Assembly: GCA_031431155.1 (NCBI GenBank)
Contig: JANPCW010000204.1
Coordinates: 2,461 to 66,460, forward strand
Direction of reading: 5' to 3'
Source of the DNA: Janthinobacterium sp.
Lineage (GTDB): Bacteria; Pseudomonadota; Gammaproteobacteria; Burkholderiales; Burkholderiaceae_D
DNA: 64,000 nucleotides
The notes beneath the pieces were generated by a model, which saw only the letters and a list, made by a program, of their open reading frames with translations, was not told the DNA's origin and did no database searches. Position 1 is the first letter of the stretch, and every line of letters begins with the position of its first letter. Both the position numbers and the translations under genes were made by a program. Shown one piece after another: positions 4,212-58,587 of this stretch.

Positions 4212-4218
4212 CGCGCCC

Positions 4219-38468: not shown

Positions 38469-40078
38469 GGCTGGTCAAACTCTCCAGGGAATGCTGGAAA
38501 GACGTAGGGCTTTCGAGCGCCGCCAAAGTTGGTGAAGAACACATTGAAGTCCGGGTCCGCCGTTTCGTCCAGCCCGTTCCCAGGCGGCTTGAGTGAAGTC
38601 ACTTGCTTGAATTCAGTGAAGTCTCCGTCGGTGCTGAAAAACACCAGCTTGTCCAGATCGTAGTCTGGCACGGCGAAGACGATTTTGCCCTTGTTATCCG
38701 CGTCCACATAGGGCTCTATCACCGCGCCGAAGTTGGACAGGTTGTTGTCGTTCATGCGCCCAGGCAGCACGCCTGAGAAATTCCAGGTCGAGCCGTAGTC
38801 GCGCGTGAACATGATCTTGTTGTCGGTGCCGTCACGCCGAACAGGCATATACATGCACCCGTCGCCAAAACCAAACTGGCACGTCCGAAGGTCGTTGGTG
38901 TAGCCAAAGAACCGCAGGTAATCGCCTCCGAGCGAAGCACCGTTGGAACTGGTGAACCAATCATCCGGGGGCCATGTGATCCTGGCATAGCCAGCCCCAT
39001 CAGTCCCGAGGAACGCCATCGGCCCGAAGCGCGCGTCAGGTGGTGTGTCCATTGGGTCGCCCATCATGTCCTTGAACCCATTGGAAATTATCAGCAGCGA
39101 CTTGCCCTGCCCGAGATAGACGATCAGCGAACTGAATGCCAAGCCCGTGAGTTGCAGGTTTTCGTAGTAGGCACGGTCTGGGCCATCAATCGGGTACTCG
39201 AACAGGTATGTAGTCAGGAACGCAGCAGCGGCAGAGGCCCAGGTGTCGCCGTGATCGGTCGAGTTCACAAGGTATGGCGCGACCTTCGGCAGCACCAGGG
39301 TATCGTCTTCCTCCACCACATGAATGCCTTGAAGCCTGCCCAGGCCAATCACGAACGGCGCGAAGGCGATGTTGTTGCGCCCCGCGCTATACACGGGGGC
39401 GACCTGAGTCATGGTCTGCGTCCCGGTGTCACCCACATAGAAGATCGGCACCCGGTTGTCAACGTGCGGCGAGCCAGTCCAGTAGGTTGCGGCCAGCCCG
39501 AAGCGATACCGCTTCGTGTCGTCGTCCCATCCCGAGCAAGTAAAGTAGAAGGTGTGCAGGTCGGTGAGCAAGCCGCTGATCTGGATGTCATCAATGAAGG
39601 TGGTCGAGCGGCCCATTCTCTCGGGGTCGCTGGCAAGGTACTGCGCCCAGGACAAGGCCTGCATCATCACGGGCCAATGTGTCACTGCGTCGGTGTCTGC
39701 GCCGATGTCGTTCAGGTTGCTGAACAGCGCCAGGACGAATCCGTCGCCCACATAGGGCAGGCGCGCGAGCGTTGGATTCGCCGCCAGTGTGCCCAGCAGG
39801 TAGAACGGCGTCAGCTTGGTGATGCGGCCAGATTCGTCATCGTCGATGTCGATAGCAGCCGGAAAAATGGCCGCTGAATTGAGTTTGTAGAGCCCGATCA
39901 GTGACGGCTCACCGACGAACACTTCGCTCTCGTAGAACCCGTTCTTCTTGTACGTCCTCGACCCCGGAGACTCCTTCGTCAGGAACGGCGTATTTACCCG
40001 TGCGAGCGCATCCCGGTCGCCCTGCGAGCCACGGGCGTAACCATTGCGCTCCCTGGTGAAGTCATTCGGGTACTTCAT
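38465..40078 (-). CDS. BNR/Asp-box repeat (sialidase-like beta-propeller) protein, putative tailspike or receptor-binding protein
   Basis: Asp-boxes are STDHGDTW (39239-39262) and TRDYGSTW (38783-38806). A degenerate third box is STDGDFTEF. Confidence 0.55.
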   Translation of the reverse strand: MKYPNDFTRERNGYARGSQGDRDALARVNTPFLTKESPGSRTYKKNGFYESEVFVGEPSLIGLYKLNSAAIFPAAIDIDDDESGRITKLTPFYLLGTLAANPTLARLPYVGDGFVLALFSNLNDIGADTDAVTHWPVMMQALSWAQYLASDPERMGRSTTFIDDIQISGLLTDLHTFYFTCSGWDDDTKRYRFGLAATYWTGSPHVDNRVPIFYVGDTGTQTMTQVAPVYSAGRNNIAFAPFVIGLGRLQGIHVVEEDDTLVLPKVAPYLVNSTDHGDTWASAAAAFLTTYLFEYPIDGPDRAYYENLQLTGLAFSSLIVYLGQGKSLLIISNGFKDMMGDPMDTPPDARFGPMAFLGTDGAGYARITWPPDDWFTSSNGASLGGDYLRFFGYTNDLRTCQFGFGDGCMYMPVRRDGTDNKIMFTRDYGSTWNFSGVLPGRMNDNNLSNFGAVIEPYVDADNKGKIVFAVPDYDLDKLVFFSTDGDFTEFKQVTSLKPPGNGLDETADPDFNVFFTNFGGARKPYVFPAFPGEFDQP

Positions 40079-40102
40079 AACGCCCCCGTTCAGGGCAGAG
40101 GA

Positions 40103-40540
40103 TTACAGCGTCGGCAACGCGATGCTGAAATAGTCGATGGTGCGCGAAGCCGCAGCAGTGAACGTGGTCGATTCCAAGTTCAGGTCAGCGCCAGCCGTGC
40201 CGACGGACATCTGAATCCGGCGCTCCGTGGTGGACACGCCACCCGTGTCAGATGCCAGTACCACCAATCGGCCGTAGCCGGCCGTGCCGCTTGCGTTGCA
40301 GCTTGAGTCCTGCCACGTTTCCGCAGCCTTCGACAACACGCCGCCCGAGGCTGACGGGCCGAGGCTCAATCCCGTGCCGCCACCGCTGACAGTGAACTCG
40401 GCGAGCAGCGTGCCGGTGACGGCCGCATCCGCCGTGGCAGGCTCCGCGCCCGTATAGATGCGCAGCACGGCCAGGGCGAGGCCTGCCTTGACAGAGCCGG
40501 TATCGAGTGCGTAGTTTCTTAGACCTGTTGAGGCGCGCAT
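40103..40540 (-). CDS. hypothetical small virion protein
   Basis: ORF track entry for a beta-rich, Gly/Thr/Ala-rich protein. Confidence 0.6.
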   Translation of the reverse strand: MRASTGLRNYALDTGSVKAGLALAVLRIYTGAEPATADAAVTGTLLAEFTVSGGGTGLSLGPSASGGVLSKAAETWQDSSCNASGTAGYGRLVVLASDTGGVSTTERRIQMSVGTAGADLNLESTTFTAAASRTIDYFSIALPTL

Positions 40541-40541
40541 T

Positions 40542-40762
40542 TCATTTCTCCTGTGGTTGACCGGACCAAATGCGTCCGGCGATTACTTTGCAAATTGTGC
40601 TACCACTCACGCCGAACTCGGCAGCCAATGTGGCCTGTGTGACTGTGCCGCTGGAAAACCTGGCTCGAATTTCACGCGCCAACGTGACTCGAAGCTGGAA
40701 GCCGAGCCGATATACCGCTTGCCATCCAAGCGGTTGGTGATTGAATATATGCCGGTTTCCAT
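40542..40762 (-). pseudogene. decayed GIY-YIG homing endonuclease
   Basis: Hand translation from the ATG at 40762 gives METGIYSITNRLDGKRYIGSASSFESRW (canonical GIY..YIG), then nonsense and a stop at 40607. A shifted frame continues as AREIRARFSSGTVTQATLAAEFGVSGSTICKVIAGRIWSG (a typical HEase C-terminal HTH), with a stop at 40542-40544. The nuclease core between them is missing. Confidence 0.7.
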
Positions 40763-41268
40763 CACGCAGAAATGAGGGTGAAGCCGGCCGTCACGCGCAG
40801 CACTTCGTCGTCGGCCAGTGGTTTCGGCGAAGCAAATCTCACCGCCGACAACAGGGTGCCAGACGTTGCACCCTTGGCGGATGCCGATGTGATGAAGCCG
40901 CCATAGATCGTGACTGTGGTGTTTATGGTGAACTCGGCCCGCGACGCTGAATTGTCCACAGCGCCGGCAGCCACCGTGCCGAACACCAGAATCTCGCGCG
41001 TGGCCTCGTCATAGGCAGAACTCTCCGTCGCCGAACCTGGGAACGTAGCGGCGGTGTCGCCGTTGACGGGCGTGTAGTTGCCGCTGAACAGGCCCATGTA
41101 CCACGATGTCACCTGGGCGCCGCCCTTCAACTCGGTGTTGAGAAGGTGGTTCAGGCCTTCGGTGGGCATCAGGTTTTTGATGACCTCCGAGTCGCGCACG
41201 TTGCCGGCCTTGTCGATCACTTCGATCAGGTAGGTGAATGCGGCCTTCATTTCGTCTTTTGCTTGCAT
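40762..41268 (-). CDS. hypothetical small virion protein
   Basis: ORF track entry. Its C-terminal domain is similar to that of CDS 15443-16270. Confidence 0.6.
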   Translation of the reverse strand: MQAKDEMKAAFTYLIEVIDKAGNVRDSEVIKNLMPTEGLNHLLNTELKGGAQVTSWYMGLFSGNYTPVNGDTAATFPGSATESSAYDEATREILVFGTVAAGAVDNSASRAEFTINTTVTIYGGFITSASAKGATSGTLLSAVRFASPKPLADDEVLRVTAGFTLISA

Positions 41269-41283
41269 GATTTGCTCCTGAGT

Positions 41284-42540
41284 TTATAGCGGCGTCGCTG
41301 CTTTGCGCACGATTTCGCCGCTCATGTATGAATAGGCGGCGGCGCCGGTTTGTTCCACACCAAAGCCCGCTGCAACGATCTGTTTCATGCCATCGCGTTC
41401 TCGGTAGTATGAGGCTCCCGAGACGGCTGCATTCAAGGCGAGATTCTTTTCCTGGACGTTGTTCAATGAACCGTCGGCTGCGGTGACAACCACCCCCCGG
41501 TCGGACATCCAGAAGGCGCGCTCGCTGTCAGGCGTCATCCCGCCCGTGCGCGCGACGCCGCCATAGGGCAGCACTTCGTCGGCCTTTGCGGTGGCGATGT
41601 CGCCAGTGAAGCGGTACGTCAGCTTTTCCGTGGCGATGTAGGTGTGATCCGGGGTGCATTCGACCACGGTGATTGGGTCGGCGAACGGGATGAAGTTGCG
41701 CGAGGGCCGGTACAGGCCCAGGGCATACGGGTCCGAATAGAACAGGAACCGCCCAACAGCAACGAGCAGGCGGCCCGAGCCATAGCGCACGATTTCCCCG
41801 GCCGGCATGGGCGCGAGCAGCGCCGTCTGGCTTCGGCCTTGAAGCTGGGGCATGGTGGCAATGGTCAGGCTCGCCTGCGGCGCGATCAGCGCCCTGGCGA
41901 GAAACAATTGGTCGCCGTTGACCGGGCTCATAAACACCAGGATGCCCGTGATTCCCGTCGGGAAGGCCGCTGGCAGGCCCGAAATGATGATGCCCTGCCC
42001 AGCCACCACTTCGACCTGTTGGATGATCGTGGCGGCCGATTGCGCCAGTTGCACGTCATGGTAGGCAAGGCAGACTTGGTACAGGCCGGCAGCGAGCGAT
42101 CCAACCCCGCCAGCAGTCACCACGGGCTCCGGGTTGATCGTCGGAAGGGACAGGGCCTTGTCCACGCCGCCAACGACGCGCCGCAGCACAGAGCCGTCGG
42201 TGAAGATGACCTCGCCATTGGCATTGGTGTAGGACAGGCGCGCGCCCGGCGCGATGCCGGTTCGGACCTGGGTTTTGGTTGGGGCGTCCCGCTCGCCCGA
42301 GAGGGAATAGAGAACCGTGCCGTCAACAAAGAAGGACTGGTCCGCGCCGGACCAAAGGGAATGGCAGTCGGACCCGGCGACAACTTTCTCGGAGCCCAGG
42401 CGGCGCTTGATGGTTCCGTGCGCCGTCATGTCCACGTTCACGGCAGAGCGCAGGAAGGCGCCCTTCACGCGAGACAGTTCTTGGTCTTGCAGGCGGTTGT
42501 TCACCCCGAGGGTGAAGGGACCGAGTTTTTTCGGCTCCAT
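41284..42540 (-). CDS. tail/adaptor structural protein (tentative)
   Basis: This is a 418-aa ORF in the tail module. I recognise no diagnostic motif. Confidence 0.5.
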   Translation of the reverse strand: MEPKKLGPFTLGVNNRLQDQELSRVKGAFLRSAVNVDMTAHGTIKRRLGSEKVVAGSDCHSLWSGADQSFFVDGTVLYSLSGERDAPTKTQVRTGIAPGARLSYTNANGEVIFTDGSVLRRVVGGVDKALSLPTINPEPVVTAGGVGSLAAGLYQVCLAYHDVQLAQSAATIIQQVEVVAGQGIIISGLPAAFPTGITGILVFMSPVNGDQLFLARALIAPQASLTIATMPQLQGRSQTALLAPMPAGEIVRYGSGRLLVAVGRFLFYSDPYALGLYRPSRNFIPFADPITVVECTPDHTYIATEKLTYRFTGDIATAKADEVLPYGGVARTGGMTPDSERAFWMSDRGVVVTAADGSLNNVQEKNLALNAAVSGASYYRERDGMKQIVAAGFGVEQTGAAAYSYMSGEIVRKAATPL

Positions 42541-43203
42541 CTAAAAGTTCCCTTCAGCCTCGATGAAGTCGTGCTCGCGCTCCAGCCACAATTCATCAAT
42601 CGCACTGCTGCGCTTGCCGAACTCAGCCTCGAACTCGGCGAGGAAGGCGCCGGCTTTTTTCAGGTCGATGGTTTCCGCGTCCTGCTTCGAGTAGGCCCGA
42701 TACAGCATCCACGGGACCAAGTTCAGATGGAAGCGCGAGCGGATTTCAGGCTCGTCCTGGGCGGCGGCCATGTCCTCCAGCGGGAGCCGGGTGATGGTGA
42801 GATTCACCACACCAACAGCCGTCGGGATCGGGTAGGGCCTGAACATCAGGTTGTCCATGTCCGGGATGTAGCCGCGCGGCTCGCCCGTCTCGTCTTCCCA
42901 TCCTGGGCAGGTTTCGTCCAGGTCTTGGAAGCTCACTCGGCGCAGCACGGGCGCCCGCCCTACCAACTTGGCACGGCGGATAAACAGCACCTTTTCATGC
43001 AGTTCATAGGTTGGGTCGGCGATTGCCAGGGTGATCCGGCAGCACTCAAGCGTGGTCGAGTCGATGATGAGGCGCGCGCGCCGGCACGCCTCGCGCTCTG
43101 CTTCGTTGGCCCAGGACGTGAACTCCGCGTCCGACCAAAGCGACGGGGTTGCGTTGTCGTTCGCCCGGCTGCGCGCTTCTGCAAGTAGTTCGCCAAGGTT
43201 CAT
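42541..43203 (-). CDS. hypothetical head-tail joining protein (tentative)
   Basis: This is a 220-aa ORF between the capsid-proximal genes and the tail genes. Confidence 0.45.
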   Translation of the reverse strand: MNLGELLAEARSRANDNATPSLWSDAEFTSWANEAEREACRRARLIIDSTTLECCRITLAIADPTYELHEKVLFIRRAKLVGRAPVLRRVSFQDLDETCPGWEDETGEPRGYIPDMDNLMFRPYPIPTAVGVVNLTITRLPLEDMAAAQDEPEIRSRFHLNLVPWMLYRAYSKQDAETIDLKKAGAFLAEFEAEFGKRSSAIDELWLEREHDFIEAEGNF

Positions 43204-43204
43204 G

Positions 43205-44800
43205 TCATGCGGCCAATCTCATGTCCAGTTTCCAGTCTTCGTACCTGCGCATGATCGCAAGAAACACGCCGTTTGGCGAGATATTTTGCTGACACAGCGC
43301 GGCGCCGGTTTCGGCGTCTTCGTGGCAGAACTCCTTGCCGTAGTGCAGACGGTGGCACGGGTAGCAGTTCGTGCCCTGCGGCTCCATGACATCGGTGAGC
43401 TTCCAGTGCTTGGTCAAGTTTTCATGCGACGAGTGCGAGAGCATGATGACCTTGGGCACGGGCTCGAACGCCACGGAATTGAGAATCCCGGTTTCAGGTC
43501 CGACCACCAGATCAACCTGCTGGGCCAGCGTCAGGGAGTCGCGGATGCCCACTTCGCCAGAGGTACACATGATGCGCTCGGTTTCTTCCCAGCCGGCCTC
43601 AAGAATCTTGCACGGCTCGTCGCCGTTGAGAATCAGCAAAAGCTCCGGGATGTTGTCGAGCAGGCCCTGGATCACCGTGTCCTGGTGCGGATAGAACTTG
43701 TGGACGGATGACCCGGCAAGGCACCACAGCACGTTGAAGCGCTCCTTCGCCCTCATGGGGATGGGCAGGCCCGTGGCGAGCCGATTGCGGGCCGCACTGA
43801 GCATGGCGGCGGCTTTCTTCTTTTCCTCTGGGCTCGGGAAGAAGCGGGCTTCCTCGCTGTAGGGCAACTCGGCAAGCCGCGCCGTCCACTCCAGGTAGTT
43901 CTTGTTCAATTCCACCTTGCGCACGGAATGGGGCCAGCCGTGATTGGTCCTGCCGGGGAAGGCCAGCAGGGTTCCCTCGACCGACTCACTCAGGTTGATG
44001 AAGCGGTCAAAGCGCTTGGCCTGGGACGCCCAGAACAGCGGCAACTCATGGTTTGGAACCTGGTCCTCGTCTTGCAGCATGAACTCATCAATGTGCGGAT
44101 CGTGCTTGAGGATTTCGTGGCCCCTGGGCGTGGTCATAAAGACAACAAAATATCCCTGGCGCTTGAGTTCCGGCAGGATGCCGGCGGCCTGAATGGAATC
44201 GCCGAACCCGCCGTAGCGCACCACGCACGCGCTCTTGGCCGGGCGCACGCGCGGCGCCATGACCTGAAACCCGCTATCGTTCTTTTGGAACACCTGGAGG
44301 AAGCTGTACTCGCGGTCCTGGTCGCGCACTTCCTCGACCAGCAAAGTCCATGAGCCGATGTCGCTCATGGCGTCCAGGATGTCATCTTCGGTGAAGTCGT
44401 GAACGTGATCCGGGTTGGCGCCGAGCCTGCCGATGTTGGGGTACAGGTTGCGGTGGGGCAGGTACAAGACCAAGTGCCCGCCGACCTTGAGGCAGCGCCA
44501 CCAGTCTCTCAGGGCGGCATTGTGGTCAACGATATGCTCCAGCAAGTGGCTGCTGAACACGAAGTCCACCGATGCGTCCTTGACGCAATCGCTCAGATCG
44601 GCGGCGTCCTTGCAGACGACATCGGGCTTCATCTTGATGCCAAAAAGCTCGGTGTCCTTTTGGCTGTCGATGCCCAGGAAATGCGGGAAGGCCTTTTTTG
44701 GGCCGCAGCCAACATCGAGCCCGACGCCGCGCGTGTACTGAACGATGTCGTACTTGCACTTGTCGGCCTCATTGCCCTGGGGATCATCAAGCCGCCACAT
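43205..44800 (-). CDS. class I SAM-dependent methyltransferase fused to a GT9 (heptosyltransferase-like) glycosyltransferase
   Basis: The N-terminal part has GLDVGCGPKK, VDFVFSSHLLEHI and LKVGGHLVLYLP (Methyltransf_11-like). The C-terminal part has ACVVRYGGFGDSIQAAGILPELKRQG ... VVGPETGILNSVA (GT9 pattern). A Cys/His-rich tail follows. Confidence 0.7.
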   Translation of the reverse strand: MWRLDDPQGNEADKCKYDIVQYTRGVGLDVGCGPKKAFPHFLGIDSQKDTELFGIKMKPDVVCKDAADLSDCVKDASVDFVFSSHLLEHIVDHNAALRDWWRCLKVGGHLVLYLPHRNLYPNIGRLGANPDHVHDFTEDDILDAMSDIGSWTLLVEEVRDQDREYSFLQVFQKNDSGFQVMAPRVRPAKSACVVRYGGFGDSIQAAGILPELKRQGYFVVFMTTPRGHEILKHDPHIDEFMLQDEDQVPNHELPLFWASQAKRFDRFINLSESVEGTLLAFPGRTNHGWPHSVRKVELNKNYLEWTARLAELPYSEEARFFPSPEEKKKAAAMLSAARNRLATGLPIPMRAKERFNVLWCLAGSSVHKFYPHQDTVIQGLLDNIPELLLILNGDEPCKILEAGWEETERIMCTSGEVGIRDSLTLAQQVDLVVGPETGILNSVAFEPVPKVIMLSHSSHENLTKHWKLTDVMEPQGTNCYPCHRLHYGKEFCHEDAETGAALCQQNISPNGVFLAIMRRYEDWKLDMRLAA

Positions 44801-44990
44801 GCTCGTCTTCCTTGTAGAGGATGGCGCGGATCGCCTCGCGCGTCCAGGTTTTCAGCTTGCGCTTGCGGGATGGCGGCCTGTCCGACAAAACACGGTTGCC
44901 TTGTCGGTCGAATAGAAGACCGTCTTGCTCAAAAGCAAGTCTGGGGTCGCCGTGGATTTCTCCGAACGGCCTGTCTCGGTCGAGCCTCAT
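44787..44990 (-). CDS. hypothetical small protein
   Basis: ORF track entry. Confidence 0.45.
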   Translation of the reverse strand: MRLDRDRPFGEIHGDPRLAFEQDGLLFDRQGNRVLSDRPPSRKRKLKTWTREAIRAILYKEDEHVAA

Positions 44991-44993
44991 GGC

Positions 44994-45194
44994 TCAACTA
45001 TCGAGGTCTTTGCCGAACTTGGCGTCCTTGGCGTCGCTCTTGGCGTTGAACGAGCCGTGGCTATTCAATGCGCTCTGGGACAGGTCGGCGCCGTAGGTGT
45101 CGCCGTTCATGCCCGTGCCTGTGCCTGCGTCACCCATCTTGGTCTTGTCGCCCTGGACGGTGCCGTCGGGCTTGGGGTTGCTCAGTTTGTCCAT
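44994..45194 (-). CDS. hypothetical small low-complexity protein (Gly/Asp/Lys/Ser-rich)
   Basis: ORF track entry with a disordered-looking composition. Confidence 0.45.
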   Translation of the reverse strand: MDKLSNPKPDGTVQGDKTKMGDAGTGTGMNGDTYGADLSQSALNSHGSFNAKSDAKDAKFGKDLDS

Positions 45195-45198
45195 GATG

Positions 45199-45426
45199 TC
45201 ACCTTTCCCATCCGCCGGGGCGGGTCAAAAATCCCTGCGGACCTGGGGGCGAGTCAACAATCAGGGACGAGCCCTTCATGCCGCTGCCCGTGGGCTCATT
45301 CATCGAATGGTAGCCCTTTTTCAGGTCTGCCATGCTGGCGTCCCCAAGCGACCCAGAGGTCGCGCCCTCCGTGCTGCCCGATGATGCGGGCAGCGACGGG
45401 GACTTGTTGAGGTCTAGGCCTTTCAC
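45199..45426 (-). CDS. hypothetical small low-complexity protein (Ser/Gly-rich)
   Basis: ORF track entry. Its GTG start overlaps the upstream stop (GTGA). Confidence 0.45.
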   Translation of the reverse strand: MKGLDLNKSPSLPASSGSTEGATSGSLGDASMADLKKGYHSMNEPTGSGMKGSSLIVDSPPGPQGFLTRPGGWER

Positions 45427-45788
45427 GACTTCACCGCGTCAGGCAGGACTTCAAACTCGTACACGATCTGGGCCGTGCCGGTCGCATCCGCGCCAGAGGT
45501 AGCGCTGACCTGATCCATCGCCTCGACCGTCGAATTGATCACGCCGGAACTCACTTCGACCCCCGCCACGTTGGTTGAGAGAGTGATAAGGCCAACCGAA
45601 GTCGTGCCGTTTTTGATGGTGTAGGCGTGGGTGGTGGCCGTGCCCGCGACGACGACGGCGGCGTGCGCCTTCTTGAGCCGCATCTTCTGGAAGGAGCGAA
45701 ACTTCGAGCCCTCCGTGGTGGCGCCCGCCGTGGTGGGCGGCATGCAGGCTTCGCGGCGAATTGTGAAATCGGGATCAGAGTAACCCAT
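45423..45788 (-). CDS. hypothetical head-associated protein
   Basis: ORF track entry for a beta-rich small protein downstream of the capsid gene. Confidence 0.55.
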   Translation of the reverse strand: MGYSDPDFTIRREACMPPTTAGATTEGSKFRSFQKMRLKKAHAAVVVAGTATTHAYTIKNGTTSVGLITLSTNVAGVEVSSGVINSTVEAMDQVSATSGADATGTAQIVYEFEVLPDAVKS

Positions 45789-45806
45789 GATGATGCTCCT
45801 AAAAAA

Positions 45807-46328
45807 CTAAGTTCCAATCTCAGCCGTAGCATACCCTTTATTGAGTTTGATGCGACTGATCGTATTCTGTGTGACGCCAAATACAGCCCCGATTTTTTCT
45901 TGACTGATCCCGCCAATCTCCAGCATTTTTCTCACTTGCCTTGCCTGCTCATTTGTCAACAGCGCATTGTGGTTTGCTTCACCAATCAATCTCGCATGCT
46001 GCGCTCCAGAAAACTTGACTCGCTTTTGTTCTTCGCCAACCGGGTGAGCCGATTTGTGGCACCGGAAACAAAGCCAGTCAACATCCAGGGGGCGGCCGTA
46101 ATCATCGTGGTGTGCATGCACTTTCTCGGTCGCTGCGCAAAGCCGGCATGGTTGCCTAGCAAGAAGCCCTTGCCTGATCGCGTAATTGAGCCTGTTTTGC
46201 GCGGCAGTCTTTTCGCGATTTCTCGCTCGATATGCGCGCGCCAACTCAGCATGGCGTTCGGGATGGGCTTTTTTCCAGGCACGGGACATTTCTTTCTGCT
46301 GCTCGTACTGCTGTGGTTTGCGGTCCAT
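45807..46328 (-). CDS. HNH endonuclease with a C-terminal HTH
   Basis: CRLCAATEKVHAHHDDYGRPLDVDWLCFRCHKSAH is the HNH core. ISQEKIGAVFGVTQNTISRI is the HTH. Confidence 0.8.
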   Translation of the reverse strand: MDRKPQQYEQQKEMSRAWKKAHPERHAELARAYRARNREKTAAQNRLNYAIRQGLLARQPCRLCAATEKVHAHHDDYGRPLDVDWLCFRCHKSAHPVGEEQKRVKFSGAQHARLIGEANHNALLTNEQARQVRKMLEIGGISQEKIGAVFGVTQNTISRIKLNKGYATAEIGT

Positions 46329-46385
46329 GACGGCTCCTTTGGTTATGGAGCCCGCATTATGCCGTTTCCCACAGAAAGTACCTAG

Positions 46386-47396
46386 CTATGTCGCGCTATC
46401 CCACTTAACCACCCTGCTATTCTTGCTGGAGTTGGCTGCCACCAGGGGATGGACGAGGCCAAACCCGCCGATGTAGTACCACGCGATGCCACGATCCCGG
46501 CCGAAGTCGGACGGAATCTTGCCGCGCATTTCCTCGGGGACCGCAACACCCTCGGCCACCGTGTCGTTGCCCAAGAAGAAGGCCCAGCTTGACAGGGCGT
46601 TGTTCCATGGGTCGGCGGTGTCGGTGCTGGCATTGAACGTCCCTGAGTCAGCGGCGCCGCCCTTGGGAATGTTCGTCTGCTCGACAAACCGGGTGCTTTC
46701 GTAGCGCCCAACCTCGCCGTTCAGAATGAACTGGAAACCCGCGTCGGTGTACTGCTTGATCTGCTCAAGCTCGTCCTTGAAGGGCCTCCAGGTCGAGACG
46801 TGGCTGATTGCCACATAGTCGTCGGCCATGTAGGGCGGAATGTTCCGTTCCTTCATCAGGTCCACGATCAACTTGACGTGAGCCTTGCCCAGCGCGACGT
46901 TGTTCGTGGTGACGGACGTGCCGCTGGTGGACAGGACCAGGGAGGTCGTGGACGTGCCGGCCGTTGGCGTCACGCGCAGAGGCGTGGCGTTGAACTCGGT
47001 GAAGGCGGCCACGTCGAACGCTTTTTTGGCGTCGTTCTTGAGCACCTTGTCGATGATTTCCTTGATCGGCTGCTCGGACAGGTCATCGAGCTTGCCGGTG
47101 TAATCGACCGAGTTGCCGTACTCGGTGATCGTCATGGTGCCCTGCGTGATCGTGAAGTTCGTCTTGGGCATGACGGTGGTTTCCGTCAGGGTCGTCCCGC
47201 GAGTCGTCACGTCCGAATAGACGTTCCAGTGGAAGGTGTCGCCCTTGCCCTTGCCTTGGACGGCAGCGTCTTTGATGTCCGCAAACTGGCGGAACTTGAC
47301 GGTGGGCTGGACAGCATGCCGAAGCACTTTGGACAGGTTCGGCGACCACATATAGCCGCCGAGTGAATTGGTCAACCAGACTTGTTGAGCAGGCAT
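46386..47396 (-). CDS. major capsid protein (HK97 fold)
   Basis: This is the 336-aa reading from MPAQQVWLT, with a GGAG 6 nt upstream; the ORF-track TTG start at 47408 is less likely. The sequence pattern and its position after the scaffold gene are typical of HK97-family capsid proteins. Confidence 0.75.
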   Translation of the reverse strand: MPAQQVWLTNSLGGYMWSPNLSKVLRHAVQPTVKFRQFADIKDAAVQGKGKGDTFHWNVYSDVTTRGTTLTETTVMPKTNFTITQGTMTITEYGNSVDYTGKLDDLSEQPIKEIIDKVLKNDAKKAFDVAAFTEFNATPLRVTPTAGTSTTSLVLSTSGTSVTTNNVALGKAHVKLIVDLMKERNIPPYMADDYVAISHVSTWRPFKDELEQIKQYTDAGFQFILNGEVGRYESTRFVEQTNIPKGGAADSGTFNASTDTADPWNNALSSWAFFLGNDTVAEGVAVPEEMRGKIPSDFGRDRGIAWYYIGGFGLVHPLVAANSSKNSRVVKWDSAT

Positions 47397-47426
47397 TTGA
47401 ATCTCCAATCAAAAAATGGACGATGG

Positions 47427-48404
47427 CTATGCCGGGAGTCCTCTTGCCAGCCGCATTTCCTTGATGACATCGGTTGCGGTTGGCTCAACTACTTCGGGCG
47501 TTGCCGCCTTTGTTCCAAGGCCTCGCACGTTGTCGATGCGCGCCTTGCGGTCCAGCTTTGTCTGGCGATCCGTGGTCGGGGCTTCGTCGGCGATCTTCAT
47601 GCCCTTGCTTTTGGCCCAATCTCGCATCGCAGTGGCCGCCGTTTCCAATGATTCGGAGAATGACTTTCCCGTCTTCTTCGCCGCATCGAAATGCTGGTCT
47701 GCCATCTGCGCGAGGTATGGGTCATCCACAATGAACTTGTTGTTCACCGCGAAAGCGTCCAATGCACTCTCGTCTTCCATCTGCTGTCGGATTTGCGGCG
47801 TCAACTGGGCAGTCAACTGGGCAATGTCGAGGGTGGGATTTTCCGTCCGCCTCTGACTCACCAACGCGACCAACCGATCAACCGCAGCATCCTCGTCGCC
47901 CTCGAACATCGCTTTGACAGTGGCTCTCACCGTGTCTTGAAGCTCTGCCCCGCTGGCGTCTTGGGCGCCATTCTGCACTGGTTTCGGTGTTTCAGCAACA
48001 GGCTGTGGTGCGGACGCTATTTTTTGTGCTTCGGCCAGCAAACGCTCGGCATCGGCGCGCGCGCGGGCACCTTCCTCAAAGCGCTTGTCGGCCGCCAACC
48101 CTTTTTGGTAGGCGCGTTGCATTTCCGCAACAGTGACTTGGCTCTCGACGCCATCGACCTTGACGGTGACGAGCGTGTCCTCCTTGGCAAAAATATTTGC
48201 CGGCTTCTCTGTCGGCTCTGGCGCCAGTTGCGCGGCCAACTGATCGGGCTCGACGCCGCGCTCTTGGTCGTGCGAGTCGGACATCGCATCCATCGCCAGC
48301 AGGCGCGGATTGATGGGCGGGTCTTTCGGGGCTTCGCCACCTGGAAGGCTGTCGTTTCCTTCTGGTGACACGCCCGTTGGGGTAGCGTCTTGTTCGAGTG
48401 GCAT
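47427..48404 (-). CDS. scaffolding protein
   Basis: The protein is acidic, helical and Ala/Glu/Gln-rich, and the gene lies between the portal-region genes and the capsid gene. Confidence 0.6.
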   Translation of the reverse strand: MPLEQDATPTGVSPEGNDSLPGGEAPKDPPINPRLLAMDAMSDSHDQERGVEPDQLAAQLAPEPTEKPANIFAKEDTLVTVKVDGVESQVTVAEMQRAYQKGLAADKRFEEGARARADAERLLAEAQKIASAPQPVAETPKPVQNGAQDASGAELQDTVRATVKAMFEGDEDAAVDRLVALVSQRRTENPTLDIAQLTAQLTPQIRQQMEDESALDAFAVNNKFIVDDPYLAQMADQHFDAAKKTGKSFSESLETAATAMRDWAKSKGMKIADEAPTTDRQTKLDRKARIDNVRGLGTKAATPEVVEPTATDVIKEMRLARGLPA

Positions 48405-48429
48405 GAAAAAAGCTCCTTTGGTTGTTGAA

Positions 48430-48738
48430 TCAGTCGCTCATGTTTGCGAAGGATCGCTCCGCGTTCTCCCCCTCTGCGACGGCCTGCGCCATCCAGATGA
48501 GAAAGTTCTCTGCGCAGCGTGCATCGTTTTGCAGCTTGCGAATCTCTTTGGGGTTGTCCGCGTCGGCGTCCTTGAGTGCTTCAAGGGCCTGCTCGCGTTC
48601 ATCGTTCGCCCTGCCGGTCAGATACCGGCCCAGGGTTGAGTTCATAAACGCCTGGGCGTCCAGACCGAAGGCAATCGTGCCTCGGATCGCGGTCAGGTCG
48701 GCCTTCTCGACTTCTGCGTCTGGCTCTTGTTCATCCAT
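48430..48738 (-). CDS. hypothetical protein
   Basis: ORF track entry that overlaps the end of the portal gene by 8 nt. Confidence 0.55.
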   Translation of the reverse strand: MDEQEPDAEVEKADLTAIRGTIAFGLDAQAFMNSTLGRYLTGRANDEREQALEALKDADADNPKEIRKLQNDARCAENFLIWMAQAVAEGENAERSFANMSD

Positions 48739-50920
48739 TGGAGTCTGGCCTTACGGTTTGAATGCCCTGGTTCGCCCCAACGCCTGGGCTGGCTGGCGCC
48801 GCCGGCAATGCTGGCGTGAGCGGCGTCGTGTCTCCGGTCGCCTGCGCCGTCTCGATGCTCGTCTTGGGGTTGAACATCGGCTGGAGCGTCATGCCCGTCG
48901 CGTCAGCCATGGGCTGCGGGAAATTCGGGTCAATCGCAGCCGGATTGGGCGGGACATATCCAGCGGCCTTCATCAACTCGTCGGCGATAGGCGACACCTG
49001 TGGTGTGGCGGCAACAACCTGCGCCGCTTGCATGGCGGCGAAGATCGAGCGCATACTTTTCTCGACCTGGGTGGCGATGTTGTCCTTGGACTTGGTGCCG
49101 ATGTTGGCAATCTCCGCGTCCAGCTTCTCGATCTGCTTGGCGAGCATTTCGGGGGACACCTTTTGCTCCAGAGCCTTCTGCAACTCCTGGATTTCGGCCT
49201 GCGCAGCAAGCAGCGCCGGGTCTTGCGTCTCATCGAAGAAGCGGTCGCCGTCTTTGTAGCCCAGCTTGCCGAACAGTTCCTTGATGACTTCGCCGATGTC
49301 CAGGCCATATTTCTCCAGAACGCCGTCGGCCAAAAGCTCCTTGAGGTTCTTCATGCCCAGCATGAAGTTGGCGATCTGCTCTTGCGGGCTCGTCGCTCCA
49401 ATACCCACGTTCACGTTGAGCGTGAGTTCCCTGGACAACAGGTCGTCGGTCACGGCGTCCACGCCGAAGCGCTGGAACAGCTTGGCCTTCTTGCCGGCCA
49501 GCGCCAGGACCACGCTATCAGTTTCGTAGTGTTGCTCCAGCAAGATCATCTGCGACAGGACGGGCTCGACCCACGTCTCGACAAACGTGCGCAGTTGGTA
49601 GCTCGATACCTGCGATGCGTTGCCGGTCAGGATGTTCATGCCGCCGACGGTTTCGTTGAGCTTCCGATTGCTCTGAACCGATGACGGTGAAAACGTCCCC
49701 GCCACTTCATCAAAGTCCACGTTCAGGCGGTCCTGCTCCTGGTATGCAGAGGCCGTCACGTCGGGCGTGTTGATGACCAGCACGTCCTTCTCCGGGTCGT
49801 CCATCATGGTCACACTGCTGGGCGTGTTGCGCGTGAGGCTTCGGACATCAACTTGCTTGTTGCGCTTGACGAAGTAGCGCTTGTTCATGGCGAACTTCAC
49901 GTTGTCGATGCGCTGGTTTGCCACCTCGTTGATTTCGGACGCGAGGCTCTTGGTCACGTCGGCAACGCCTTCGGGATAGACCTTGTGCGTCTCGATCATG
50001 CAGAACCCCATGGCATAGGGGCGCCGGCCGTGCCAGTACGCGGCCTTGAGCGGCTCGGGGTCGGTGAGCATGTGAAACGTGCCCAGCGTGTAGAACAGCA
50101 AGTCCTGCCCGTCAACGGCTATGATGTTGCGGTGGACCCAGACAACCGTGAAGTCGCCGACGGACTGACTGACCTCCTTGGAGTCGGTGCGACCCCGCTC
50201 GCGCGTAAGCCGGGTGGAGTCGGAGTACAGCTTGGACGCCTGCAAGATTTGGGCGTCGGTCATAGTCTTCCAAGCTCGCGTACCCTCGCTCTTGATCGGA
50301 GTCCTGCGCATGCGGGCCTTCACGTCTTTGACGTACATCGGGATCAGTTGAATCAGGTACGGGCTGGTGTTGATCGGGTCGGACCACTCAGCAGCGGGGT
50401 CGAGCCGAAAGTTCTCCAGGGGAATCAACTCGATGCAGGGCTTGTCAACCCCGCGCTCGGCGTCGTAGTCCCAGTATTGGTAGGAGAGGCAAGCTCCCAG
50501 GGCCTGCGCGTCTTGGTACGCCCCCATCGAAATCAGGAACCATGGGACGGACTTCTTGAGCCGGTAGTTGATAAGCTCCATGACCACGGCGGCTGACGCC
50601 TGCTGAATTTCGTCGGAGTCATCCTGGGCGGAAATCGACAGCACGTCCTTGGCAGAGAACAGCGCCTCGGCGGCGATAGCCTCGTTCTTCCTGATCGTGG
50701 AGCGCGTCTTGGGCCGGTACAGCTTGGAGCGTCCCCGGTAGGCATCCGAGTGGTACTTCGAGCCGGCAGGGTGGACGCCCTGGAATTGCCGAAGGTTGGA
50801 CTCGATCTTGGCCCTGATGCTCGAATCGAAATAGGTGGTTGAGGCCGTGAATGCTTCGCGGGCCATCGCCAAGTAGTCCGTCGTGTCCTGGGTTTCTTCC
50901 TGCTCGATTGCGGTTTCCAT
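48731..50920 (-). CDS. portal protein
   Basis: This is a 729-aa ORF in the position downstream of terL. The pattern resembles a T7-type head-tail connector. Confidence 0.75.
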   Translation of the reverse strand: METAIEQEETQDTTDYLAMAREAFTASTTYFDSSIRAKIESNLRQFQGVHPAGSKYHSDAYRGRSKLYRPKTRSTIRKNEAIAAEALFSAKDVLSISAQDDSDEIQQASAAVVMELINYRLKKSVPWFLISMGAYQDAQALGACLSYQYWDYDAERGVDKPCIELIPLENFRLDPAAEWSDPINTSPYLIQLIPMYVKDVKARMRRTPIKSEGTRAWKTMTDAQILQASKLYSDSTRLTRERGRTDSKEVSQSVGDFTVVWVHRNIIAVDGQDLLFYTLGTFHMLTDPEPLKAAYWHGRRPYAMGFCMIETHKVYPEGVADVTKSLASEINEVANQRIDNVKFAMNKRYFVKRNKQVDVRSLTRNTPSSVTMMDDPEKDVLVINTPDVTASAYQEQDRLNVDFDEVAGTFSPSSVQSNRKLNETVGGMNILTGNASQVSSYQLRTFVETWVEPVLSQMILLEQHYETDSVVLALAGKKAKLFQRFGVDAVTDDLLSRELTLNVNVGIGATSPQEQIANFMLGMKNLKELLADGVLEKYGLDIGEVIKELFGKLGYKDGDRFFDETQDPALLAAQAEIQELQKALEQKVSPEMLAKQIEKLDAEIANIGTKSKDNIATQVEKSMRSIFAAMQAAQVVAATPQVSPIADELMKAAGYVPPNPAAIDPNFPQPMADATGMTLQPMFNPKTSIETAQATGDTTPLTPALPAAPASPGVGANQGIQTVRPDSNG

Positions 50921-52702: not shown

Positions 52703-55414
52703 TTATGATCCATCGGTGAAGGTTTCAGGCTCAAGTGTACGCTGGTCAATGATGATTGGTCGAACTGGGTCCATGTCGTATATTCTGCTCGCACTATCCA
52801 TGAAGTCCTTTTTGGAACTGAACGGGTAGGTCAGGTATTCTTCGAGGAACCCCTTGTTCAGCGAGTACAGGTTCCCCTCATGGTCCTTGGCCTTGGTCGG
52901 CTTGAAGATGCGAAACGACTGCCCTTCTTCGCGGATTTTCTTCTGATTGGCCGTCTCGCCATCGGTTATGGCGGCCAGATAGTACCGGCCGGCGGCGAAA
53001 TCGGGCTGGAGACGCTGCACCCGGTCATCCTTGGCCGTGGTCCCGTCATGGGTCCAGGACAACTCGACAATCTCGAAGGAATCCTTGATCGCCTCCATCT
53101 TTTCCTCGAAATACTCCAGGTCCGACTGCATGCCGTACTTCTCGTAGCCGACCCGCACCATCTGGACCCCCACCGTGTTGACCCAGCGCTTGCGCAGCAG
53201 GTAAAGGTGCTCCCAGCGCTCCTTGAGCCCCATCTTGTGCCGAAATCCGTCGAGCAGATACTTGTTGCCACCCGAGTCGATCCCGGTTACAACCATGGCC
53301 GTGTTGTCCGAACCCTTCTTTTTCGAGTTCGCGGGGTCCACCGTGATGTAAATGTTCAGCGTCGCAGGGCGGATGTCGATGAAGCGCAGCCATTCCTTCT
53401 TGAACATCGCCTCGTTCCCGGCCGCCGGGTTCAAAAGCTGCTGGCAGGCAATCGTCGCCGGCCCCTGCTTCTGCTTCTTGTCCCCCCAGGCCTCGGGCGT
53501 GAGCAAAACCGGCTTGCCGTCCGCCGTGCCGTCATCGGTCGCCGGGTACAGCCTGACCTTGAGCGCCCCCTTGTCGATGATGTCCTGGTAGGTGTCGCCG
53601 AAGTGATACCGAGTCCCCGAGTGCCAAGCGCGCAGCGACCCATCCTCGCCCCGAGCCCCAAGGTTGTCCGACAACTCCCATGCGTCCGTCGTCTTCTTGA
53701 CCTGTTCGGGCGTGTTCACCGACGCCAGCGTCACCACGTCGTCATAGACCCGCAGCCGGTAGTGGGCGCCGGTAGGCTGCCCGTCCACCAGACCATGGGC
53801 CTCAATCGTCGCCTCCTTGGGGTTGGACTGCCTCTTGACAGTCAGCCCCTTTTCCTCCGACCATGTGGGGCTCTCGCGCTGGGGTTCGGCGTAAAAAATC
53901 TGTGGATAAGTCCTCTGCAACTCCCGGTTCGTCTCCAACTCCAACTTGATCTGGAGCATGAACTTTCGGGCAATCGGCTTGGTGTGCGAGAAAATCCCAA
54001 CCGTGACCTCCGGGTCGATGATGATTTCCTGGATGATCCCGGCGAACGTGATGATGGTGCTGTTGTGCGTGGTGACCATCTGCCGGCCGGCAAGGTACAG
54101 GCCGTCGGGGCGCTCCACCTGGATGCAGGACATTGGCACGGGCGCGATGGGCGTGCAATCCACTATGTAGCGGCGCGGGTGTGGCCGTGCGCCGGGCTTG
54201 GCACGCGCGGCCTTGCGCGGCAACCGGAAAGGGTTGGCTTCCTGATATGCCTGGAACGCCACTTGCCAGACCGGGCCGAACTCGTTTTTGTACTCGTAAA
54301 CCGATGGCTTGAGTCCCAGGCCGGTAGCCAACTCATAAACGTCGTGCACAAGACGCTCGTTGGTATTGGTGAAAGTCGCGGTGCCTCGGGTATTGCAGTG
54401 ACCGTCGGTGTCCATGAGTCCGCGCAACAGTTCCATGCGCTGGCGCGTGCTGCCACGCTGGTAGAAGACCGGGATGTGCTTGTCGCCCAGGATGCGTAGG
54501 CCTCGAAGCAGCGGTCGAAGCCCGTAAACCGTTCGCGTGACGGCATTTGGCTTGCTTGGAGCGGCGTCTGGGCCTACGATGTAGCCTTCTGCCTTGATGG
54601 CGTCGAATATCGCCTGGTCCTCGCCGGTTATGCGGCCATCGGCCGCCGATCCATCGCCAAGCCACGCGCCCAACGTGTACGGCTCGATGGGCAGCAAAGC
54701 ATCGGGCATGTTCAGCGGGGCATTGACCGGGATAGCCAGGCGGTTGTCAGCCGTGTGCTGGTGCGAATGAATATCGCGCGTGCTCAGTGTCACTGCTTCG
54801 CGGTACTGGCGCCCATTGGATGTGCCTGCAATGCGCTTGCGTGTCTTGCGCTCGACATCCCACAGATGGTCGGCGCCGGCCTGCATCACAGTCCCATCGT
54901 CAAAGCTGAGTTCAAAGGCATCGCCTTCCGTGAAGACCTCTGTGCAGGCCACAACGCGGGTCGGCATGCCATCCGGCCCGTACACCCAGTCACCATGCCT
55001 CAATGCTCCATGGGTGGTCCAGCCGCTTGGCGTTGGCACCGGCTCGTCAGTGCGCAGCATTTTGTAGTGTTCCCGAGCCCATAGGTCCAGGTATCCATCC
55101 GGGTCGAGTTCAACCTCGCGGCAGCGCGCGTAAATCCAGGGATGGACGGCATCAGAGCGGTGCAGCAGCTTCGTCAACAGGTAGAACCTGTCGTGGCGGC
55201 CCAGCCACCCCACCGCAATCTCCCCGAAACTGACCTCCAACTCGGCCCAAAGCTCCCGGATGCCAGTAAACGGCGCCGCCAGCAGCAACGGCTTGAACCG
55301 ATCCAGCACCGCCAAACGCTGCGCCAGCGTCAGTTCTGGAGCCTTCGGAGCCTTCTCGACCTCCTTCTTGGGTCGCCCACGCTTCTTCACGGGGGCATCA
55401 ACGTCAGCTTCCAT
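52703..55414 (-). CDS. terL: terminase large subunit (intein-containing)
   Basis: The Walker A region LWAREHYK|STIITFAG is split by an intein. Walker B is LRVYDDV. The nuclease half contains YITVDPA and MVVTGID. Confidence 0.85.
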   Translation of the reverse strand: MEADVDAPVKKRGRPKKEVEKAPKAPELTLAQRLAVLDRFKPLLLAAPFTGIRELWAELEVSFGEIAVGWLGRHDRFYLLTKLLHRSDAVHPWIYARCREVELDPDGYLDLWAREHYKMLRTDEPVPTPSGWTTHGALRHGDWVYGPDGMPTRVVACTEVFTEGDAFELSFDDGTVMQAGADHLWDVERKTRKRIAGTSNGRQYREAVTLSTRDIHSHQHTADNRLAIPVNAPLNMPDALLPIEPYTLGAWLGDGSAADGRITGEDQAIFDAIKAEGYIVGPDAAPSKPNAVTRTVYGLRPLLRGLRILGDKHIPVFYQRGSTRQRMELLRGLMDTDGHCNTRGTATFTNTNERLVHDVYELATGLGLKPSVYEYKNEFGPVWQVAFQAYQEANPFRLPRKAARAKPGARPHPRRYIVDCTPIAPVPMSCIQVERPDGLYLAGRQMVTTHNSTIITFAGIIQEIIIDPEVTVGIFSHTKPIARKFMLQIKLELETNRELQRTYPQIFYAEPQRESPTWSEEKGLTVKRQSNPKEATIEAHGLVDGQPTGAHYRLRVYDDVVTLASVNTPEQVKKTTDAWELSDNLGARGEDGSLRAWHSGTRYHFGDTYQDIIDKGALKVRLYPATDDGTADGKPVLLTPEAWGDKKQKQGPATIACQQLLNPAAGNEAMFKKEWLRFIDIRPATLNIYITVDPANSKKKGSDNTAMVVTGIDSGGNKYLLDGFRHKMGLKERWEHLYLLRKRWVNTVGVQMVRVGYEKYGMQSDLEYFEEKMEAIKDSFEIVELSWTHDGTTAKDDRVQRLQPDFAAGRYYLAAITDGETANQKKIREEGQSFRIFKPTKAKDHEGNLYSLNKGFLEEYLTYPFSSKKDFMDSASRIYDMDPVRPIIIDQRTLEPETFTDGS
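54062..55060 (-). mobile_element. intein (333 aa) with a LAGLIDADG homing endonuclease, in the terL P-loop
   Basis: It spans aa 119-451. It ends in VTTHN followed by a +1 Ser. LAGLIDADG motifs are LGAWLGDGSA and LRGLMDTDGH. Block B is ADHLW and block F is PMSCIQV. Confidence 0.8.
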
Positions 55415-58074: not shown

Positions 58075-58587
58075 ATGGGCAAACTACTCTCCATCAGCGG
58101 CAAGTGTATCCACTATCCAGGCGGCACCAGCCGCCCCTGGGGAGTGACCGACATCGGCGACCACTGGGCGATAGTCCACACCGAAACCTTGGCGACTGTG
58201 CTTATGGGCAAGTTCAAGCTCGCCGGTCGAAACAGCTTCGACAGGGCTCTGGCCGAGGCCGCGCGCCGCAATGGCCCGACGCCTGCCGCGCAAGCGCCCG
58301 CCAAACTCGCCACCGCCCGGCCTGAACTGTCCTTTGACGGTTTCGGCATCAACGGCCCCGACACCTACCGCTCGCGCATTGTGACATTCCCCAACAACGT
58401 GATCGACGCCGACCGCGCCAAGTATGGCCCGCTGTTTGAGGCCGCGCCTGATCTGCTGGCTGCGCTGAAAAACATCATGGATGTTTGGCCCAACACAGAC
58501 AAGGTTCCCGGTTGGATTGACAGATGGACGAACGCACTGGCGCAAGCCCGCGCCGCAATCGCTCAGGCCACCAAGGGAACGCTATGA
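58075..58587 (+). CDS. hypothetical protein
   Basis: ORF track entry. Confidence 0.6.
   Translation: MGKLLSISGKCIHYPGGTSRPWGVTDIGDHWAIVHTETLATVLMGKFKLAGRNSFDRALAEAARRNGPTPAAQAPAKLATARPELSFDGFGINGPDTYRSRIVTFPNNVIDADRAKYGPLFEAAPDLLAALKNIMDVWPNTDKVPGWIDRWTNALAQARAAIAQATKGTL

Follow-up and report, generated by a model that had tools for sequence, protein, structure and literature searches.

A methyltransferase and glycosyltransferase gene in the late head operon

We analyzed a stretch of 64,000 nucleotides from Janthinobacterium sp. (contig JANPCW010000204.1 of assembly GCA_031431155.1), referred to here as the window, in which an open reading frame (ORF) of 531 amino acids plus stop at 43205..44800 of the minus strand lies among phage structural genes. 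Its product, which we call MT-GT, combines a predicted S-adenosylmethionine (SAM)-dependent methyltransferase with a predicted GT9-type glycosyltransferase (GT), and the question addressed here is what such an enzyme could do among the genes for a phage head. The ORF begins with ATG, has a third-position G+C fraction (GC3) of 0.82 and has relatives in the databases. An earlier interpretation made from the letters alone (the sequence-only reading) had described a 531-residue protein with a set of named motifs, and all of these were found where it had placed them. In a collection of 5.8 billion proteins, more than 2,800 match MT-GT; the best 120 of these share 56–70% identity and are nearly all full length, with two covering 84–91% of the query. 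Because of the number of these matches and the length of the best ones, the ORF lies far beyond a chance reading frame, and the comparison indicates that it is a real gene.

The PHROG and Pfam assignments give the following order along the minus strand: small terminase (55844-56641), large terminase (52703-55414), portal (48731-50920), probable scaffold, major capsid protein (MCP; 340 amino acids, 46386..47408, phrog_1357), HNH endonuclease with a C-terminal helix-turn-helix (45807-46328, phrog_2340), four small ORFs, MT-GT, head–tail adaptor (220 amino acids, 42541..43203, phrog_399, E 2.6e-36) and head-closure protein. The small conserved ORFs s121 (45423-45788), s75 (45199-45426), s66 (44994-45194) and s67 (44787-44990), the last directly upstream of MT-GT, are situated between the HNH and MCP genes and MT-GT; PHROG and Pfam scans of the four (44787..45788) gave no match. 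The start of MT-GT overlaps s67 by 14 nucleotides, and a single nucleotide separates its stop from the ATG of the adaptor gene directly downstream (TGAcATG). No sigma-70-like promoter was found in a scan of 40000-48500, and the terminator-like matches in the promoter and terminator scan around MT-GT were at chance level. Because of the overlap, the one-nucleotide gap and the lack of a promoter-like site, MT-GT is translationally embedded in the late head operon. This agrees with the placement in the sequence-only reading, which had put the gene between the capsid genes and the adaptor and tail genes and had expected it to be expressed late. The HNH endonuclease gene directly follows the MCP gene, a position that is empty of HNH in most related loci.

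Domains and putative metal finger of MT-GT

The methyltransferase domain comprises amino acids 1-183 (44252..44800, minus strand), as delimited by the Pfam match, the invariant columns and a domain model. Residues 28-112 match Pfam Methyltransf_11 (PF08241) over profile positions 1-95 of 95, with 43.2 bits against a cut-off of 21.2 (E 6.3e-11), and 30 of 30 relatives match the same family. The domain contains GLDVGCG at residues 27-33, VDFVFSSHLLEHI at 78-90 and LKVGGHLVLYLP at 104-115. Motif I, D29-x-G31-C32-G33, reads G-C-G-P and not GxGxG; it is invariant, as are D45, D65 and FSSHLLEH (82-89), and a family-specific loop, LYLPH..YPNIG..GANPDH.HDF, follows at 113-136. A domain-only AlphaFold model reached a predicted local distance difference test (pLDDT) score of 87, and its best fold matches were Trm9, METTL6 and small-molecule methyltransferases, with E values of about 1e-8. 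These results confirm, at the level of profile and model, that the N-terminal half is a class I SAM methyltransferase with predicted SAM binding, as the sequence-only reading had supposed.

The C-terminal two-thirds carries the glycosyltransferase. Its acceptor-binding half, the GT-B N-lobe (amino acids 185-345, 43766..44248, minus strand), was delimited by the GGFGD motif, the invariant columns and a profile alignment. Here VVRYGGFGDSIQAAGILPELKRQG occupies residues 193-216, and the putative catalytic base D201 (nucleotides 44198-44200) lies within GGFGD, of which G197, G198, G200 and D201 are invariant in 30 family members. In the model, this lobe has four beta-strands only (residues 190-194, 218-223, 239-242 and 266-269 by DSSP), followed by a helical insert at about residues 270-345. 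The nucleotide-sugar-binding half, the C-lobe (amino acids 346-472, 43385..43765, minus strand), was placed by invariant columns, profile alignment and Foldseek. It contains the invariant, putatively phosphate-binding K368 (nucleotides 43697-43699) in AGSSVHKFYP and, at 434-444, GPETGILNSVA, in which E436 (nucleotides 43493-43495), T437, G438 and N441 are invariant. The chain ends, after the metal finger described below, in a C-terminal helix at amino acids 509-531 (43208..43276, minus strand; residues 509-530 helical by DSSP, pLDDT about 90). The C-terminal helix of GT-B enzymes usually crosses back to the N-lobe.

Single-sequence scans of Pfam, NCBIfam, the PHROGs and the PDB sequences gave no match to this C-terminal part; PF01075 did not match MT-GT itself at E <= 1, and the full-length family profile retrieved methyltransferases only, and no GT9 enzyme, from the PDB sequences. 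PF01075 matches 7 of 30 relatives, with a best E value of 2.3e-5. A more diverse profile, built from standalone family members, matches the solved GT9 enzyme 3tov over both lobes (E 1.5e-6) and WaaF (E 0.004); its alignment equates GafGD with HLGD of 3tov and VGD of WaaF, SGSsvhKiyP with ..EKRWP/KRWP, and GPETGvLN with NDSGpMH. The full-length AlphaFold model (pLDDT 84.6, predicted template modeling score (pTM) 0.83) had as its top Foldseek matches in the PDB 1psw (WaaF, 1.1e-12), 3tov (8.6e-12), 2h1h (WaaC, 2.7e-9) and 4rap (TibC, 2.5e-7), and its best viral fold match was an RfaF-like phage protein (8.5e-14). The relatives carry the COG-based JGI names ‘ADP-heptose:LPS heptosyltransferase / SAM-dependent methyltransferase’, where LPS is lipopolysaccharide. 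By profile and by model, the C-terminal two-thirds is shown to be a predicted inverting GT-B glycosyltransferase of the GT9 (ADP-heptose) type with intact catalytic Asp and phosphate-binding Lys motifs. The GT9 call of the sequence-only reading is upheld in this way, to which single-sequence scans were blind, and the comparison of a predicted structure with GT9 and methyltransferase folds agrees with it in both halves.

The LPS heptosyltransferases WaaC and WaaF and their relatives in CAZy family GT9 (PF01075; 2H1H, 1PSW, 3TOV) are the best folds for MT-GT (E 1e-12 to 3e-9), and 3tov and WaaF are the only solved relatives reached by a sequence profile. MT-GT keeps their GD catalytic motif and K-x-[WY]-P. 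It differs from them in having GPETG..N for xDSG..H, a Cys4 finger, a fused methyltransferase and a location in a head operon, not in an LPS locus.

The Cys/His-rich tail to which the sequence-only reading had drawn attention proved to be an invariant Cys4(His2) finger, putatively metal-binding, at amino acids 479-503 (43292..43366, minus strand), where CYPCHRLHYGKEFCHEDAETGAALC has the pattern C479-x2-C482-H483-x2-H486-x5-C492-x10-C503. All six Cys and His residues are invariant in 30 family members. The finger sits between the last C-lobe strand and the C-terminal helix and has low pLDDT in the metal-free model; in the profile alignment, the aligned regions of WaaC, WaaF and 3tov contain no such finger.

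This placement recalls the bacterial autotransporter heptosyltransferase (BAHT) family (TibC and AAH; PDB 4RAP/4RB4), whose GT9-like members act in the cytoplasm on folded autotransporter passengers and O-heptosylate their serines (eLife 2014, PMC4358343). TibC has an additional domain at the N-terminus, an N-lobe whose sheet is atypical in having four strands, the catalytic Asp110 and Lys230, and a Cys4 iron finger in the C-lobe (Cys339, 342, 358, 370) that is needed for oligomerization and contacts the protein substrate; its natural substrates are beta-helical passengers (PMC4358343). Like TibC and AAH, MT-GT is predicted to be a GT-B enzyme of GT9-like type whose N-lobe supplies the catalytic Asp and whose C-lobe supplies the phosphate-binding Lys, and to be soluble and cytoplasmic. 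In both, the N-lobe sheet has four strands, an additional domain stands at the N-terminus, and a Cys4 finger lies about 110 residues past the Lys and just ahead of the C-terminal helix (111 residues from K368 to C479 in MT-GT; 109 from Lys230 to Cys339 in TibC). The BAHT enzymes act on folded proteins, not on lipid A. The finger placed as in TibC, the four-stranded sheet and the extra domain are therefore features resembling those of an enzyme with a protein acceptor.

The differences from TibC are also clear. The N-terminal domain is a methyltransferase in MT-GT and a beta-barrel in TibC; the finger spacing is CX2CX9CX10C with two invariant His in MT-GT and CX2CX15CX11C in TibC; the N-lobe of MT-GT has the extra helical insert; and Arg286, Trp305 and Pro300 of TibC could not be mapped onto MT-GT. 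TibC forms a ring-shaped dodecamer with a beta-hairpin thumb, whereas MT-GT is known here as a monomer model. Finally, MT-GT is encoded by a phage and has no autotransporter partner, its neighbors being head and adaptor genes in all loci examined. The resemblance, as judged from sequence and model, is thus positional and architectural, and homology is not demonstrated.

MT-GT has no transmembrane segment and no signal-like N-terminus (the Kyte-Doolittle average over 19 residues peaks at 1.05). Overall it is an acidic protein, and the net charge of its N-lobe is +1. In the explanation that we favor, the product is proposed to be a soluble, cytoplasmic enzyme.

Family spread and genomic context

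In IMG/VR, the family profile matches 514 contigs, and the GT-finger part by itself matches 579; scanning IMG/VR with the standalone profile led for the most part to the podovirus lineage already sampled. At E <= 1e-3, 772 clusters match in a library built at 50% identity. Among the 150 best representatives at 50% identity, which served as the sample for a motif scan, most have retained G[GA]xGD and GPETG, and the finger, CxPCHx[LM]H...C...C, is present in about two-thirds; those with the finger include both standalone and large architectures. Three cultured bacteria, Aromatoleum anaerobium LuFRes1 (NZ_WTVG02000039, about 310-331 kb), Paraburkholderia rhynchosiae WSM 3937 and Paraburkholderia sp. 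C35, have further matches on large contigs, as would be expected of integrated prophages, and many metagenome-assembled genomes have matches as well. No full-length relative of MT-GT was found in deposited phage genomes. The family is widespread and uncharacterized, and our full-text literature searches agree with the sequence-only reading, which knew of no characterized phage methyltransferase–GT9 fusion: they found no such fusion, no phage TibC-like enzyme and no fusion of a GT9 domain, a finger and a methyltransferase.

The methyltransferase is usually fused to the GT-finger part. In one locus (L269) it is a separate gene three ORFs upstream of the GT gene; in four others (L133, L135, L129, L185) it is shortened and its motif I is degenerate; and marine standalone forms consist of the GT-finger part without a methyltransferase. 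Because the GT-finger part is constant across these architectures while the methyltransferase varies, the former appears from the sequences to be the functional core and the latter a frequent accessory. In locus L149 (6783-8978) the fusion is split into a 172-residue methyltransferase gene and a 352-residue GT-finger gene by an ORF of 226 amino acids with a GIY-YIG-like motif (IRYIGQT); the two parts can therefore exist as separate polypeptides.

To place the gene in its surroundings, we surveyed 113 loci with a near-full-length relative, 87 of which have enough upstream sequence. Of these 87, 81 have an MCP homolog on the same strand upstream of the gene, and a homolog of the adaptor follows MT-GT directly wherever one is detectable; the adaptor homolog of locus L001 carries PF24175 SU10_adaptor. 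The median identity to the window protein is 56% for MT-GT, compared with 65% for the MCP, 61% for the large terminase, 52% for the portal, 41% for the adaptor and 32% for the scaffold. By this measure of sequence divergence, MT-GT is conserved as a core morphogenesis gene, at about the level of the portal.

The six loci without an upstream MCP homolog belong to other kinds of phage, and in those examined MT-GT again lies among head genes. One (L024) has a lambda-type portal, a protease–MCP fusion, MT-GT, a lambda FII-like head–tail attachment protein, a tail terminator and a tape measure; in another (L031), MT-GT comes after a protease–MCP fusion; and in a third (L029), it lies between the large terminase and a lambda-family portal. 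Standalone GT-finger genes fill the identical slot before the SU10 adaptor, which the fused forms abut as well. Because MT-GT occurs among the head genes of these three loci, we conclude that it has moved between unrelated structural modules, of at least three types, with its head-gene neighborhood kept.

Some relatives, among them L001 (11602-12072), have between MT-GT and the adaptor an ORF of 156 amino acids with a weak Pfam match to the Proteasome subunit family (Ntn-hydrolase; E 1.5e-5). The 100-kb contigs L001 and L002 also carry, at 2429-4949, an N6_N4 DNA methyltransferase gene and a PAPS_reduct-family gene between portal and scaffold; this insertion is separate and may concern DNA modification.

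Elsewhere in the window, a single ORF of 5,243 amino acids (16763-32494, minus strand) stands at the end of the structural module and encodes a ‘polyvalent protein’ with LPD1 at about amino acids 1406-1478, a Strawberry-notch-type helicase (AAA_34 and Helicase_C_4) at about 2600-3290 and LPD38 at about 4940-5132. A LAGLIDADG_3 domain at about 2479-2538, possibly an intein or homing endonuclease, precedes or interrupts the helicase. A 406-residue protein (13625-14845, minus strand) has the Mtd_N domain of the major tropism determinant of Bordetella phage BPP-1. Its gene is flanked by paralogous plus-strand ORFs at 13143-13664 and 14931-15434, which have the similar N-termini LRELLNYDPDTGVFTRR and LREVLHYDPETGIFTWR and are possibly homing-endonuclease-like. 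In the early region, 58524-59078 of the plus strand encodes a RadC-like JAB-domain protein (E 1e-41).

Proposed function and its alternatives

We propose, as a reading to which we give somewhat less than an even chance, that MT-GT acts late to attach a sugar, probably heptose, to a head protein of the virion and to methylate that sugar. Its synthesis would coincide with that of the head proteins, late in infection. The GT domain would move the sugar onto Ser or Thr residues of a virion protein, and its donor would most likely be ADP-heptose drawn from the pool of the host. The acceptor would most likely be a head protein, either the MCP or a small head-associated protein, and the adaptor is also possible. 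By analogy with TibC, the finger would hold an oligomer together and grip the protein substrate. More speculatively, the methyltransferase would methylate the transferred sugar, giving an O-methyl-heptose cap. The outcome would be a glycan coat on the particle, with stability, shielding from host or environmental recognition and reduced re-adsorption as possible benefits. According to the account of Freeman et al. 2023 (Cell Host Microbe) in PMC12619734, mycobacteriophage-encoded glycosyltransferases decorate capsid and tail-tube subunits. These systems, whose hosts are Actinobacteria, show that self-glycosylation of virions does occur in tailed phages. Our literature searches found no virion self-glycosylation shown experimentally outside the mycobacteriophages, where it affects immune recognition.

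Composition singles out the MCP as a candidate acceptor: a Thr/Ser-rich patch at amino acids 149-168, with 13 Ser or Thr in 20 residues, is the densest of the structural proteins here in a composition survey. The small proteins s121 and s75, which are rich in Ser and Thr (23%), are alternative candidates on the same grounds. The four small ORFs as specific partners or substrates of the enzyme were rejected, since Vibrio phage D65, which has the same module and a 50% identical MCP and has no MT-GT, contains an s67-like ORF and positional equivalents; by this comparison the four belong to the ancestral module.

As to the methylation target, the closest homolog in a deposited phage is the type-11 methyltransferase AXQ70513 of cyanophage S-T4 (MH412654; hhalign probability 99%, E 4.5e-18), which shares with MT-GT the signature FSSHxLEH...LYLP...N..HKH.F.P. 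It adjoins an ADP-heptose synthase / heptose-7-phosphate kinase gene, with a cytidylyltransferase and a phosphoheptose isomerase (GmhA) nearby. Because this homolog sits in a heptose-activation cluster, the methyltransferase subfamily seems, by analogy, to be tied to heptose or glycan chemistry and not to DNA or protein methylation. The S-T4 protein differs from MT-GT in being a standalone protein of 164 amino acids from a T4-like myovirus, not fused to GT9. A 253-residue neighbor of the S-T4 methyltransferase, considered as a GT-like protein seen in BFVD, was set aside, as it has no sequence similarity to GT.

The sequence-only reading had left two functions open, modification of virion proteins and remodeling of host LPS. 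We favor the former over the latter because of the embedding in the operon, the conservation at the level of a core gene and the head neighborhood in unrelated modules. LPS or surface-glycan remodeling, in which the GT9 domain, working at the cytoplasmic face of the inner membrane, would extend the LPS inner core or some other glycolipid of the envelope by a sugar and the methyltransferase would cap that sugar, so as to block superinfection or the re-adsorption of progeny to debris, is in our judgment unlikely. The best fold and profile matches, WaaF, WaaC and an uncharacterized GT9 protein, point to it, as do the automatic JGI names of the relatives, and the large contigs in betaproteobacterial assemblies on which many carriers lie would suit temperate phages. 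However, neither the timing nor the location of a gene embedded in the late head operon, without a promoter-like site, suits lysogenic conversion, and LPS core made so late in infection could not reach the surface in quantity. The head neighborhood across unrelated modules and the portal-like conservation are unlike those of a moron. Set against a lysogenic-conversion moron of the gtr or Oac type, MT-GT is a late-operon gene with no promoter-like site of its own and no transmembrane segment, and yet it is absent from about 29 related modules. The lack of a membrane segment, an N-lobe that is not basic, and a Cys4 finger not seen in the aligned regions of WaaC and WaaF also speak against an LPS acceptor. 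Nor are GT9 enzymes only builders of the LPS inner core: the sequence-only reading was correct in naming that as their usual role, but it overlooked the protein O-heptosyltransferases of the BAHT family.

A published annotation has also been read in terms of the cell surface. The Pseudomonas aeruginosa siphovirus prophages vB_PaeS-D14C, D14O and D14Q have adjacent ‘GT9’ and ‘SAM methyltransferase’ genes, which their authors interpret, at annotation level only, as serving DNA or O-antigen modification (mSphere 2023, PMC10449497). Like MT-GT, the pair of D14C lies in the structural module, between head–tail adaptor genes and tail genes. It differs in consisting of separate genes in the opposite order, with a GT of 275 amino acids that has neither the GPETG motif nor the Cys4 finger, and it was rejected as a member of the family because no homology was detectable (hhalign gave probabilities of 19% and 9%). 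In the D14C genome (BK061477, locus L272, 23060-24818), genes for an annotated anti-CRISPR, the 275-residue GT9-annotated protein and a 185-residue SAM methyltransferase stand in a row; the annotated anti-CRISPR suggests an accessory-gene spot.

It is less likely again that MT-GT has some other acceptor (tail fibers or spikes, the 5,243-residue polyvalent protein, a small molecule or a peptide) or is mainly a non-catalytic assembly factor. The substrates of TibC are beta-helical, as phage fibers and spikes often are, and several tail proteins of the window are rich in Ser and Thr, p752 and the Mtd-like fiber having 12 in 20 residues each. However, all module types examined have the head genes or the head–tail joint, and not tail fibers, as constant neighbors; the siphovirus-type loci examined lack the giant polyvalent protein; and the invariant catalytic residues speak against a purely structural role. 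Hypermodification of phage DNA, in which the GT would put a sugar on a hydroxymethylated base, as T4 beta-GT does, and so evade restriction, with the methyltransferase in the pathway, is highly improbable: phage GT-B enzymes do put heptose or other sugars on 5-hydroxymethylcytosine, some of their clusters being near structural genes (bioRxiv 10.1101/2023.12.21.572611), and modification at the packaging stage would be compatible with a gene close to those for packaging and for the head, but such systems need a C5-cytosine methyltransferase with a TET-like oxygenase, or a hydroxymethylase, and none is adjacent in any locus examined or was found among the 10 non-structural ORFs scanned (a subset of the ORFs of the window), while the methyltransferase is of type 11, like small-molecule and tRNA methyltransferases and unlike DNA methyltransferases, the fold is GT9 with the T4 beta-GT not among the 50 best PDB matches, and the protein is acidic overall.

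Several observations weigh against glycosylation of a head protein as proposed here. The donor, the acceptor and the methylation target of MT-GT are all ones that we infer. The canonical sugar motif D-S/T-G-x-x-H is not present, and E-T-G..N stands in its place (G-P-E436-T-G-I-L-N441); most of the 150 representatives scanned have a GPETG-type motif, a minority match none and a few carry D-S/T-G variants. Because E-T-G..N replaces D-S/T-G..H in most members, the donor sugar is not to be assumed; by its motif, the sugar might not be heptose, plausible as that sugar is. TibC was not retrieved from the PDB sequences by either family profile, even at E <= 10, and the LPS enzymes WaaF and WaaC outrank it by fold. 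The differing Cys spacing means that the fingers of MT-GT and TibC may be convergent. The fold search gave no guide to the substrate class of the methyltransferase, since it returned only generic class I methyltransferases, and this domain is degenerate or absent in some lineages. In a comparison of 39 MCPs from loci with the GT and 26 from loci without it, neither the Thr/Ser-rich patch nor any Ser or Thr column tracked the enzyme: the patch is also present in the GT-less loci L214, L202 and L221, and the column differences between the two sets are small, with phylogeny as a confounder. With the D65 MCP as seed, a scan gave 40 loci with a GT between MCP and adaptor and about 29 in which the adaptor directly follows the small ORFs. 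Because some 29 related capsid modules do without the gene, MT-GT is not needed to build this capsid type and is dispensable for it.

For the family as a whole, we hold it possible, with a confidence slightly lower than for the window enzyme itself, that a large and unrecognized phage family coats the capsids of phages of Gram-negative bacteria with a heptose-type, often methylated sugar. If this is true, virion glycosylation would be widespread in environmental podoviruses and siphoviruses, and the BAHT-style mechanism of protein heptosylation would have a viral counterpart, beyond bacterial adhesins. Particle stability, adsorption, immune clearance in phage therapy and the annotation of structural proteins would all be affected, and MT-GT would offer a compact enzyme with two activities, glycosylation and methylation, for glyco-engineering. 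The three cultured hosts with apparent related prophages make the hypothesis directly testable. If the capsids are indeed glycosylated, a sugar coat would be a common and overlooked feature of the phages of Proteobacteria in soil, wastewater and the sea.

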